NCBI GenBank assembly: GCA_034190145.1
Contig: JAXHTN010000001.1
Span: forward strand, 1 to 28,651
Reading direction: 5' to 3'
From: Halobacteriota archaeon
Lineage (GTDB): Archaea; Halobacteriota; Syntropharchaeia; DAOWMC01
DNA: 28,651 bases
Part shown: in pieces, positions 1,095 to 16,061 of the stretch
How positions within the stretch are numbered: the stretch's first letter is position 1
Layout: every line of letters starts with the position of its first letter
Notes under the pieces: model-generated
Seen by the model: only the letters and a program-made list of their open reading frames with translations
The model's database searches: none
Told to the model about the DNA's origin: nothing
Program-made: the position numbers and the translations under genes

Positions 1095-1121
1095 CAACCT
1101 TATTTTGAAGGCTGGAGAAAC
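1095..1121 (-). repeat. Probable fragment of the tRNA-Thr intron-like element (terminal hairpin)
   Basis: Minus strand GTTTCTC-CAGCCTT-CAAAAT-AAGGTTG versus intron CAACCTT-CAAA-AAGGTTG. It ends 1 nt before the tRNA-Ser 5' end. Confidence 0.4.
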
Positions 1122-2496: not shown

Positions 2497-2655
2497 TCAA
2501 CTATATTTTTCAAATCCCATATCTTTGGCCATCTCTCTGAAGCATTGCCTGCATAGATACAGATCGTACTTCCTGATCAGCCCGTGTTTCCTTCCACACC
2601 TTCTACAAGCGTTTGCTTCGTGCCCGTATCTTATCTTACTCTTCTTCTCGGTCAT
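2497..2655 (-). CDS. rps14: 30S ribosomal protein S14 (uS14, zinc type), 52 aa
   Basis: Missed by the track. [52 protein letters not shown] has CxxC...CxxC. ATGA overlap with the rpl5 stop. Confidence 0.96.
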
Positions 2656-3164
2656 TCTTTAACCACAACACCATATTCTTCACTCATAAATTCAATTGCA
2701 TCGTCCTTTGTAAGTTTATGACCACTTGGCACCTTTCTACTTTGTATCTTTCTATCTTTAATTCTGTATCCGGGCCTCTTTAGAGATACACACACATCCA
2801 TCCCAAATATCCCAACGTTCGGATCATACTTCATTCCGGCAAAATCGGTATGCTCTTCAATGCCAAATGAAAAACTTCCATTCTTATCGAAATTGGACGG
2901 TTTCAAACTCTTATGATTTATCTCAAGAGCATCTCTTAAAAACTTATCCCCTTTAGCACGCATGAGTGTGACTTTACATCCGATAGCCTCGCCTTTTCTC
3001 ACATCAAAAGCCGTCTTCTTAGCGTAGGTTCTCACTGGCTTCTGCTCAACGATAGACTCCAGTATTGTTTCGGCATTAGCAAGCCTTAGACCTGCTTCAC
3101 CGATACCCATATTAATAACAACTTTATCCAACTTCGGCCATCTCATCGGGTTCTCGTCTTTCAC
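2652..3164 (-). CDS. rpl5: 50S ribosomal protein L5 (uL5)
   Basis: [21 protein letters not shown]...[15 protein letters not shown]...FSFGIEEH...GIFGMDVCV. Likely start is GTG 3164 behind GGTGGAG. The track's TTG 3215 adds non-homologous residues. Confidence 0.95.
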
Positions 3165-3284
3165 TTTCTCCACCACAAACTTTAATACAAAGGTTTGATC
3201 AAAACACCTCACCAATTCCTGGAGAGGATTTGACGTATGGCTCTACCATACGCCGTGTAAATGATAAAACTCTTTCAAGTTTTA
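3165..3284 (-). repeat. Diverged copy of the tRNA-Thr(CGT) intron element upstream of rpl5 (putative 5' leader)
   Basis: 3231-3263 matches 15970-16002 at 28/33 nt. 3165-3205 resembles 15891-15929. Hairpin order and the outer stem are retained. Confidence 0.85.
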
Positions 3285-3290
3285 GTACAT

Positions 3291-3306
3291 ACTTTTATAT
3301 AAAAGT
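3291..3306 (-). promoter_or_regulatory. Perfect 16-bp palindrome ACTTTTATATAAAAGT containing a TATA box; likely promoter of the rpl5 block
   Basis: TTTATATA box directly after the pcn stop, about 130 nt upstream of the rpl5 start. Confidence 0.55.
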
Positions 3307-3309
3307 TTT

Positions 3310-4038
3310 TTATTCTGCTTCTATTCTTGGTGCAAGCAAATACTCGACATTACCTGCATCCCCTGCGATCTTAAATTTTATCTTTACAGGGAAATCCTTA
3401 CCAAGATCTATTATTGCTTCATCTGCTTTTGATATCGGTTTGCTCATATCTTTTAGATATTCAAGAGAGTACAAAGAACGTGCAGGGGCCGATTTTAGAC
3501 TAATGAGTTTGTCTTTGGGTAATTCTAACCTCACCTTGTCAAGATCTCCCTTGGCCTCCATATAGAACATATCTCCTTCAACACCAAGAGCTATATGATC
3601 TGATATCTTCTCTGCCGCACGTACGGCTCTTCTGAACTCATCGCCACTCAGAATAACTTGAGCAGGAAGTTCAAGAGCAGGAATCTTTGGGTCCTTTCTC
3701 AGAGAGGACGGATCAAGAAGAGATATTGCGTAAGTGAGATTAAGGAATCTTACGAGAAGTTTCCCATCATCAGTTTCTATAGAAACATCGTTAGAACCGC
3801 TCATACTTATAATATCATTCAGTTTTACAAGATCAACACCAATTTCTCCATCAGATGCCTCGAAAGAGTTAAAAGCCTCTGAACTTATCTCAAAAGATAC
3901 CATTGCAACATTTGCAGGGTCAACTGCCCTTATAATTATTCCATCGTCTTTGAGCTTGAATCGGGCTTCATCAACAAGTGTTGAAACCACCTCAATCAAC
4001 TCCTTTAATATTCCTGCACTTATTACAGCCTTTAGCAT
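3310..4038 (-). CDS. pcn: DNA polymerase sliding clamp PCNA
   Basis: MLKAVISA..LKELIEVVSTLVDEARF...RAVDPANVAMV...YSLEYLKDM...LGKDFPVKI...YLLAPRIE. Start ATG 4038 preferred; alternative 4053. Confidence 0.97.
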   Translation of the reverse strand: MLKAVISAGILKELIEVVSTLVDEARFKLKDDGIIIRAVDPANVAMVSFEISSEAFNSFEASDGEIGVDLVKLNDIISMSGSNDVSIETDDGKLLVRFLNLTYAISLLDPSSLRKDPKIPALELPAQVILSGDEFRRAVRAAEKISDHIALGVEGDMFYMEAKGDLDKVRLELPKDKLISLKSAPARSLYSLEYLKDMSKPISKADEAIIDLGKDFPVKIKFKIAGDAGNVEYLLAPRIEAE

Positions 4039-4245
4039 ATACTTCCCCACCATGTAAGGAGTGCTTCAACCCCACATATATTTTTCTCATCATCTATCAG
4101 TGACCTCAGAGAAAGTAACCGAGATTAATTATTACAATATAGGATCCATTTAGATAAATAAAGGAAGGAATAGACAGCGAATAATTTCACTTTCACCCCG
4201 CACATGGCAAATTCGTAAGTACTGGAAGATATAGCTTATAATTGA

Positions 4246-15854: not shown

Positions 15855-16061
15855 AGCCGCTGATGGGATTCGAACCCACGATCTGCTGATTTTCCGCACC
15901 AAATTTTTAAATAAAAGGTTGAACAAAACGTCCACCTTCGTTTGGACTAATCCCGACGGAGTCGGTATATGACGTATAGCTTTGCCATACGTCGTGCAAA
16001 TGTTCAACCTTTTTGAAGGTTGTTACGAATCAGCCGCTTTACCGAGCTAAGCCACAGCGGC
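15855..16061 (-). tRNA. tRNA-Thr(CGT) with a 133-nt intron at canonical position 37/38
   Basis: 5' exon 16061-16024 GCCGCTGTGGCTTAGCTCGGTAAAGCGGCTGATTCGTA; 3' exon 15890-15855 ATCAGCAGATCGTGGGTTCGAATCCCATCAGCGGCT. Acceptor GCCGCTG/CAGCGGC, anticodon stem GCTGA/TCAGC, U73, 74-nt mature form. Confidence 0.95.
15891..16023 (-). other. Archaeal tRNA intron (BHB type), highly structured
   Basis: BHB central helix UUCG(32-35)/CGGA with bulges UA^A and AA^A. A 13-bp perfect internal stem encloses three hairpins. Confidence 0.92.

Follow-up and report, generated by a model that had tools for sequence, protein, structure and literature searches.

A short hairpin-rich DNA repeat probably underlies both a tRNA-Thr(CGU) intron and the region upstream of rpl5 in one family of archaea

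Why should the region immediately upstream of the ribosomal-protein gene rpl5 (uL5) and the intron of a tRNA-Thr(CGU) gene 12.7 kb away resemble one another in sequence and in potential to fold? The question arises in a 28,651-nucleotide stretch of archaeal DNA (hereafter, the window), which belongs to a 2.1-Mb, 345-contig MAG (G000). A sequence-only reading of the window had noted the resemblance and had offered two explanations for it: that is, a MITE/REP-like mobile unit, or an RNA motif that one shared factor recognises, with the ribosomal protein uS8 as candidate ligand. The answer that we favour, with a probability of roughly 0.78, is that both stretches are copies of a short, non-coding, hairpin-rich repeat that is confined to a single family of archaea (f1) and that moves or rearranges at the level of DNA.

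The two stretches are related beyond what shuffled sequences yield. Local alignment of the rpl5 copy with the tRNA-Thr intron scores 57, as compared to 16.3 +/- 2.4 for 1000 dinucleotide shuffles (z = 16.6), and the 12-mer CACGRCGTATGG occurs at these two sites only, with 0.03 occurrences expected. The 28/33 identity previously reported for two 33-mers, with all differences being transitions, is borne out by direct reading, which yields five transitions; likewise, the statements that changes in stems are compatible with pairing and that the outer stem carries an A-T/T-A swap agree with RNAalifold, which finds 28 pairs shared by the two copies, five of them with compensatory changes. The hairpins that had been named are present, with CAACCTT/AAGGTTG and CCGAC-TCC-GTCGG in the intron as counterparts of the second 5' hairpin and hairpin 3 of the rpl5 copy (Table 1), and a third hairpin is, as had been claimed, largely missing from the rpl5 copy. 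The extent that had been given for the rpl5-upstream stretch, 3165-3284, holds at the end that abuts the likely GTG start codon and falls short at the other end, where the unit reaches further upstream, to the left palindrome.

Table 1. Repeat copies, their parts and neighbouring genes in the window.
Feature	Positions	Strand	Description
rpl5-upstream copy of repeat	3165-3306	-	fills spacer between PCNA gene and rpl5
Left palindrome, rpl5 copy	3291-3306	-	perfect 16-nt ACTTTTATATAAAAGT containing TTTATATA; begins 4 nt past PCNA stop codon (3310-3312)
Second 5' hairpin, rpl5 copy	3265-3284	-	TAAAACT/AGTTTTA
Hairpin 2, rpl5 copy	3232-3254	-	GGCGTATGG-TAGAG-CCATACGTC; best conserved module of the repeat family
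Hairpin 3, rpl5 copy	3217-3228	-	TCCT-CTCC-AGGA; shortened form of the CCGCC-TTCG-GGCGG hairpin of the repeat family
Right end, rpl5 copy	3176-3205	-	GTTTTGATC (3197-3205) and right palindrome CAAACCTTT-GTATT-AAAGTTTG (3176-3197)
Purine-rich tail, rpl5 copy	3165-3175	-	contains SD (GGTGGAG); followed by rpl5 start GTG (3164-3162)
rpl5 (uL5)	2652-3164	-	Pfam Ribosomal_L5 and L5_C; heads rpl5-rps14-rps8-rpl6-rpl32e block
PCNA gene (pcn)	3310-4053		directly upstream of rpl5 spacer
tRNA-Thr(CGU) gene	15855-16061	-	133-nt intron at 37/38; exons parsed manually
Intron, one full repeat copy	15891-16023	-	78.9 bits with covariance model R2
Left palindrome, intron	16005-16022	-	
Hairpin 2, intron	15971-15993	-	
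Hairpin 3, intron	15953-15965	-	
Hairpin 4, intron	15930-15947	-	
GTTTTGTTC, intron	15921-15929	-	
Right palindrome, intron	15899-15921	-	
Tail TGCGGAAA, intron	15891-15898	-	its CGGA pairs with U32-G35
Solo palindrome	1095-1114	-	CAGCCTT-CAAAAT-AAGGTTG; 1 nt before tRNA-Ser(GCU), downstream of rpl32e

The unit of which both stretches are copies is non-coding, is about 110-200 nt long, and has its parts in the order: palindrome (AAMCTTTT-N3-5-AAAAGKTT; TATA-like), GATCAAAAC, two to four hairpins, GTTTTGATC, and the palindrome again. Because the same palindrome and paired motifs stand at both ends, the ends of the unit are inverted repeats; the left end, AAGGTTGAxCA..., pairs with the right end, ...TGxTCAACCTT, over 13-14 bp, a pattern that holds family-wide, and the right end of the rpl5 copy is likewise an inverted repeat of its left end. 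Hairpin 2 comes in two subfamilies (CGTATGG/CCATACG vs. CCTATGG/CCATAGG), hairpin 3 has the form CCGCC-TTCG-GGCGG or variants of it, and any further hairpins are variable. The doubled 5' hairpin of the rpl5 copy is present also in the tRNA-Thr intron of a second f1 genome (G003), and G-rich tails like that of the rpl5 copy follow the right palindrome in other copies upstream of start codons. The palindrome occurs on its own as well: the solo palindrome of the window is similar to the one at the left end of the intron copy and is too close to tRNA-Ser(GCU) to be its promoter.

A BLAST search of the source genome with the rpl5 copy failed to recover even the intron, and profile methods (nhmmer and covariance models) were required to define the distribution of the repeat. 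A covariance model built from the two window copies gives strong matches in the other three genomes of f1, a family that is probably Syntropharchaeales-like. A covariance model of the 5' module (R2; E <= 0.01) finds 5, 9, 4, and 27 copies in G000, G001, G002, and G003, respectively, for a total of 45 copies, numbers that are lower bounds because the f1 genomes are fragmented MAGs (64-91% complete; misassembly at repeats possible). With the same model, 57 genomes of five sister families (f2-f6) contain no copies at E <= 0.001, and a strict hairpin-2 pattern is found in only three MAGs among 185,579 species genomes. The 3' part of the unit (GTTTTGATYAAMCTTTT-loop-AAAAGKTT; nhmmer) is found at about ten sites in the source MAG, with GC-rich hairpins before each. 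Searches against Rfam, at gathering and at permissive thresholds, returned nothing relevant to the element, and no copies were found in viral contigs, phage records, or plasmid records. The sequence-only reading had proposed that further copies be sought across genomes, and the counts in the four f1 genomes, set beside their absence from the sister families, uphold its suggestion of a MITE/REP-like mobile unit. A simpler palindrome unit with the same core, sometimes in tandem, is present in a large sister family, and a related unit is spread across the class.

The copies occupy sites of several kinds: tRNA introns, in either orientation; gene 3' ends; positions directly 3' of tRNA-Pro and tRNA-Ala; positions inside or beside copies of an IS200-type transposase gene; and sites, at least seven in number and all in the same orientation, at which the copy ends 8-15 nt before an SD and start codon. 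According to the hypothesis that the element is a conserved structured RNA, the element would bind a common protein (uS8, uL5, or L7Ae) in both the tRNA intron and the rpl5 leader and would be kept for its fold. Consistent with this hypothesis, 88% of hairpin-2 cells are paired in a comparison of 20 copies, a level reached by 0 of 500 shuffles (slid controls, 22-44%), and hairpin 2 contains one covarying pair (CG in eight copies, GC in seven); the conservation of the rpl5 spacer, taken up below, points in the same direction. However, the 45 copies are scattered over sites unrelated to one another, among them the 3' ends of genes and remnants of transposase genes, and the element in tRNA introns is in sense orientation in three cases and antisense to the tRNA in the other two. 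Moreover, G.T and A.C mismatches in hairpin 2 are equally common across the family (11 vs. 12), as would fit a decaying DNA palindrome rather than an RNA helix under selection. The orthologue of the rpl5 copy in G001 has lost hairpin 3, and no Rfam family, C/D box, or K-turn is recognised in the element: the window intron (15891-16023) contains neither box C (RUGAUGA) nor box D (CUGA) and matches no snoRNA family at threshold. We consider it very unlikely that a structured RNA with a common ligand explains the resemblance. Taken together, the intron orientations, the balance of mismatches, and the copies located at 3' ends of genes and in what remains of transposase genes give no support to the suggestion of an RNA motif with a shared ligand such as uS8. 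The bacterial spc-operon leader, with uS8 acting at the start of rplE, likewise lies immediately upstream of the gene for uL5 and has a stable hairpin; unlike that leader, the repeat is not specific to r-protein operons, being present in 45 unrelated places, and has no Rfam leader match and no identified rRNA mimicry. We know of no case in archaea in which uS8-type leader regulation at rpl5 has been shown.

Orthologous tRNA genes make it possible to compare sites with and without the repeat. The gene for tRNA-Thr(CGU) is intronless in 16 of 16 outgroup genomes examined (families f2-f5) and carries an intron at 37/38 in f1 (133 nt in G000, 134 nt in G001, 154 nt in G003). Since tRNA-Thr(CGU) lacks an intron outside f1, the element would have made the intron, a polarity that presupposes that the intron was not instead lost once in a group comprising all other families, with f1 as its sister. 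The gene for tRNA-Arg(CCG) is intronless in the f3 and f4 genomes examined; in f1 it has identical exons and an intron of 31 nt in G000, 117 nt in G001, and 197 nt in G003. The 31-nt intron is a single palindrome plus short flanks, the 117-nt intron is two palindromes enclosing hairpin cargo, and the 197-nt intron has a different cargo, with the 5' module in antisense orientation. In the tRNA-Thr intron of G001, the whole unit is inverted, with the last intron nucleotides, that is, the BHB tail, unchanged. The 3' flank of tRNA-Pro(CGG) contains a solo palindrome in G000, whereas the corresponding flank in G003 contains a 200-nt filled unit. Finally, one contig of the source metagenome, representing a related population, has the same tRNA-Thr intron ends with a 39-nt interior in place of 118 nt (a single contig). 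Orthologous sites are thus found in palindrome-only, filled, different-cargo, and inverted states, which further favours a MITE/REP-like unit. We conclude that insertion of the repeat appears to have created new tRNA introns, predicted to be spliceable. The earlier description, that one element is used as a tRNA intron at one site and as an r-protein mRNA leader at another, was right as to the sites but missed that tRNA-Thr(CGU) is intronless outside f1. The palindrome is absent from the other introns of the source genome (Tyr, Leu, Ser, Met), although a diverged palindrome may be present in the intron of tRNA-Gly(UCC). As a practical matter, tRNA finders mis-assign the intron-carrying genes, with Thr called Leu (tRNA-Thr(CGU) is miscalled as Leu(CAA) by ARAGORN) and Arg called Trp.

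In all of the pre-tRNAs compared (6/6; Thr and Arg in G000, G001, and G003), the BHB core is intact, with an h of 5 bp, an H of 4 bp, two bulges of 3 nt, and an h' of at least 2 bp. The central helix of the BHB is formed by positions 32-35 and by CGGA, GGGG, or GGAG of the purine-rich tail that follows the right palindrome. The source genome encodes EndA (G000:C112), with PF01974 matched twice in one 399-aa open frame, that is, with two catalytic domains. According to the mechanism that we propose, the repeat would insert into the anticodon loop at 37/38, and its purine-rich 3' tail would pair with the pyrimidine-rich 5' half of the loop; the insertion would be tolerated because this pairing creates a BHB; and, with the BHB formed, EndA and RtcB would remove the repeat from the RNA. 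The repeat would then be an archaeal 'introner', giving birth to a BHB intron in the anticodon loop in one step by means of an SD-like tail, with the rpl5 copy being co-opted for another use; to this fuller account we give even odds. At the rpl5 copy no BHB can be formed, because the A/T-rich 5' flank has no pyrimidine tract that complements the GGAG tail, in agreement with what the sequence-only reading had stated; the MFE fold lacks two 3-nt bulges.

We infer movement of the repeat from genome comparison only. The empty site of tRNA-Thr is known (CGTA^ATCAG) and leaves room for a duplication of no more than 1 nt (A); no target-site duplication (TSD) larger than 1 nt is visible at this site, and neither a transposition intermediate nor recent identical copies were seen. 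The flanking palindromes themselves may be the duplicated target. A different route would be mobility at the level of RNA, in which an excised BHB intron, often circular, would be reverse-spliced or reverse-transcribed into new sites, with the tRNA intron as source and the other copies descended from it. Related introns in two different tRNAs, as here, recall the 'intron transposition' of Thermoproteales (bioRxiv 10.64898/2026.10.13.758758), and circularisation is known for archaeal introns (PMC12558985). However, the majority of copies lie outside tRNAs and have no BHB, both orientations occur at one and the same intron site, and the occurrence of palindrome-only and filled states points to DNA recombination at palindromes. 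We accordingly regard RNA-level mobility as extremely improbable.

At rpl5, the repeat coincides with a change in gene order. In families f2-f5, the gene immediately preceding rpl5 is rps4e, and the two are separated by -4 to 68 nt. The genomes G000, G001, and G003 have pcn in this position, and the 137-164-nt spacer between pcn and rpl5 is the repeat element, in the same place in each; the remaining f1 genome, G002, has yet another arrangement at rpl5, without the element. The pcn-rpl5 arrangement is seen only in the family that carries the repeat, and no empty-site allele at rpl5 was found among DNA contigs of the source metagenome. From these gene orders we infer that the insertion at rpl5 is of older date and lies where family f1 broke the rps4e-rpl5 operon, so that pcn is now upstream.

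Conservation across the three genomes is informative as to what the rpl5 copy may do. Around the left palindrome, which matches the 5' palindrome of the repeat family, 27/29 positions are identical in G000, G001, and G003, and the PCNA stop codon and TTTATATA are nearly invariant; the likely GTG start of rpl5 aligns with the ATG of one relative. Between genera, the rpl5 spacer aligns at z = 17, as compared to z = 5.7 for the spacer upstream of pcn. In G003 hairpin 2 survives with three of its pairs as G.U, and in G001 with a single C.A mismatch; the sense strand forms the more stable hairpin in each of the three rpl5 spacers, a weak preference. Because the 5' half of the rpl5 copy is conserved across genera, it probably supplies a promoter and a 5' UTR. 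The left palindrome would, with its TTTATATA, probably be the TATA box of the rpl5 operon; the TSS is predicted, from TATA spacing alone, at about 3270-3280, in or near the loop of the second 5' hairpin; and the remainder of the copy would probably be a 5' UTR of roughly 105 nt ending in the SD. The conservation of the spacer across genera, together with changes in hairpin 2 that are confined to G.U pairs, leaves room for an RNA-level function at this site, and hairpin 2 is possibly retained as an RNA hairpin in the rpl5 5' UTR. The pattern is consistent with an old insertion that entered upstream of rpl5, where the operon was broken and rearranged, and that would have been co-opted as promoter and structured 5' UTR.

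A promoter at rpl5 raises the further possibility that the repeat as a whole is a selected terminator-promoter/RBS cassette, which would end upstream transcription at a hairpin with its T-run, restart it from the TATA-like palindrome with an SD-like tail, and for this reason spread by recombination, with the copies in tRNA introns being accidental. The recurrence of a GC-rich hairpin, followed by TTGTTTTG, followed by the TATA-like palindrome, is compatible with a cassette of this kind, as are the copies that end shortly before an SD and start codon and the perfect TTTATATA of the left palindrome at rpl5. Four observations argue otherwise: tRNA promoters in the source genome look like AAAnnATATATA, which is non-palindromic; the right palindrome is followed by the SD and then by the start codon, a distance too short for it to be the promoter of an SD-led mRNA; the TATA of the right palindrome is altered in the G001 rpl5 copy, which has TATGGAAG in its place; and solo palindromes abut tRNA ends at 1-3 nt. 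We consider a selected cassette unlikely. A variant in which the right palindrome is a generic promoter and rpl5 is leaderless was rejected on the position of the SD, on the non-palindromic regions upstream of tRNAs, and on the altered G001 orthologue.

If the repeat moves as DNA, as we favour, a candidate mover is at hand in f1. An IS200-type TnpA is encoded in these genomes (NF033573, 125 bits; PF01797 matches in G000 and G003), and modules of the repeat lie around its gene. The 5' module is found upstream of tnpA, at distances from about 40-50 nt (G000:C306) to about 260 nt (G003:C261), and a module comprising hairpins, GTTTTGAT, and palindrome is found between the tnpA stop codon and the IS end (G000:C296 and C96; G003:C1 and C286). 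Of the about ten sites with the right-end motif in G000, three are no more than 100-300 bp away from tnpA or a remnant of it, as compared to an estimated 0.02 or so expected by chance, and right-end motif sites in G003 likewise lie near tnpA or remnants. A clean IS200 copy (G000:C44), however, lacks both repeat modules, and the IS termini (...GGGGTATAGTGACTT; from G000:C44, C306, and G003:C1) are absent from both window copies; the window copies thus did not arise from the IS by simple deletion. On the same grounds we rejected the possibility that the element consists of the left and right ends of an IS200-type element, as in a PATE. The modules are best read as insertions into the IS or as optional parts of it, and, by hypothesis, the IS200-type Y1 transposase is the best candidate mover, a link that is drawn from co-location only. 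TTGAT-like words flank the cargo (GGTTGAT|CAAAAC; GTTTTGAT|CAACC), with boundaries that are not sharply definable. A RAYT/REP system was rejected on the score of the REP_Tyr_transpos model (22 bits vs. a cut-off of 80) and on the presence of the transposase in multiple copies with remnants.

As compared with known systems, the element is in behaviour like a MITE or REP-type repeat. As with MITEs, the repeat is short, non-coding, multi-copy, intergenic, and lineage-restricted, has inverted-repeat ends, and differs in presence and absence at orthologous sites. In contrast to MITEs, it has no clear TSD, its palindromic ends also occur alone, its cargo is modular and variable, and no autonomous element with its termini was identified. 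It resembles the IS200/IS605 elements and the PATEs of Haloquadratum (PMC3119063) in being rich in hairpins and in lacking a classical TSD, and the Y1 transposase is multi-copy in f1 genomes with hairpin modules of the repeat in its flanks; what sets it apart is the clean IS without modules and the window copies without IS termini. With REP/BIME/REPIN sequences it shares small palindromic units, solo or in inverted pairs, variable inner motifs, and an intergenic location often at transcript boundaries, but the f1 transposase fits an IS200 model and is multi-copy with pseudogenes, unlike RAYT, a single domesticated gene.

The f1 introns themselves share with other archaeal BHB tRNA introns the canonical 37/38 position, the hBHBh' motif, and the presence of EndA. 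They differ from the usual BHB introns in that their sequence is a genome-wide DNA repeat, mostly outside tRNAs and in either orientation, in that they are much longer (117-197 nt) and have no C/D box guide, and in that the time of their gain can be placed within a single family belonging to a Euryarchaeota-type lineage. The nearest concepts are the 'intron transposition' of Thermoproteales, in which, as in f1, related intron sequences occur in two different tRNAs, and the introners of eukaryotes (PMC11282704), in which mobile DNA gives rise to new introns, tolerated since host splicing removes it, as is proposed here. Unlike introners, the splicing at issue is protein-only BHB splicing in tRNA, and not spliceosomal splicing in mRNA, and the host genes are two only.

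These comparisons bear on the origin of the protein-spliced tRNA introns of archaea. When a recent survey of Asgard tRNA genes tested copying from tRNA to tRNA, mobile elements, and reverse transcription, none of them emerged as a general route (bioRxiv 10.64898/2026.10.13.758758). The case of f1 offers a known empty state and a recognisable genome-wide repeat, together with intermediates (palindrome-only, different-cargo, and inverted), and the BHB is intact every time. What is new, as a variant on these precedents, is a DNA repeat restricted to one family that would explain how two tRNAs gained introns, and whose sites are seen empty, solo, filled, and inverted. The proposition that mobile DNA enters the anticodon loop and survives if a BHB forms becomes directly testable and, if true, would show concretely how an event at the level of DNA can give rise to tRNA introns in archaea. 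The case also indicates that a striking resemblance of the 'structure-conserved' kind, here of a tRNA intron to an mRNA leader, can result simply from the common descent of repeat copies. As to the organisms, a tar-patty study describes alkane-oxidising Syntropharchaeales MAGs (bioRxiv 10.1101/2023.07.16.546273), and the source genome of the window encodes a divergent MCR-alpha.

The rps4e-rpl5 junction is conserved in the archaeal spc-like cluster, and its break is confined to f1, the family of four genomes that carries the hairpin-rich mobile repeat (window 2652-4053 and relatives at loci L072-L095). The gene upstream of rpl5 is pcn in the archaeon's own genome, G000, and in its relatives G001 and G003, and the fourth genome, G002, has a third gene arrangement at this junction. 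The excised block is flanked at each end by repeat units (window 3176-3306 and 1095-1114).

The same 36-44-nt insertion occurs in the 3' coding part of several remnants of tnpA, the IS200-type Y1 transposase gene. The insertion includes palindrome AAAACTTTTAGGAAAAGTTTT, and its opposite strand has the head GCGAAGCATTTTTGAT. The presence of AAAACTTTTAGGAAAAGTTTT within the coding part of these remnants shows that the palindrome unit lands in a protein gene too.

Insertions in tnpA remnants of G000 and its relative G003
Genome	Contig	Position	Locus
G000	C296	~405-455	L011
G000	C96	~1150-1200 (in locus)	L012
G003	C286	~1712-1755 (in locus)	L070

With intron search on, ARAGORN miscalls tRNA-Thr(CGU) (window 15855-16061) as Leu(CAA) and tRNA-Arg(CCG) (G000:C2:75-177) as Trp(CCA); without intron search, it detects neither of these repeat-bearing tRNAs. 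Both isoacceptors would go missing under standard annotation. In tRNA-Gly(UCC) (G000:C223:7791-7893), the 29-nt intron has the sequence CAAAC...GTTTG followed by GAAGAG; this may represent a similar palindrome-plus-purine-tail unit that has diverged. The rRNA operon holds a palindrome copy, AAACTTTTATTTGAAAGTTT, in its 16S-tRNA-Ala spacer (G000:C292:2208-2227).

In X1, a sequencing run of the source metagenome, contig depth over window 15905-15952, the right-end part of the tRNA-Thr intron, is ~500 vs. ~45 elsewhere, with loose contig ends on both sides of the high-depth part. The source community contains many further copies of this right-end module.

Genomes of the large sister family (G027, G028, G031, G044, G048, and G050; loci L023-L029 and L044) repeatedly carry a simpler unit, (GCGAAGCA)TTTTGATCAAACTTTT-loop-AAAAGTTTG, at times in tandem, two in a row. 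This unit is a class-wide REP-like palindrome without the family-specific hairpin cargo.

Elsewhere in G000, MCR_alpha is matched only weakly (40.9 bits; C120:2854-3267), as could be expected of a divergent alkyl-coenzyme M reductase like that described for tar-patty Syntropharchaeales (bioRxiv 10.1101/2023.07.16.546273).
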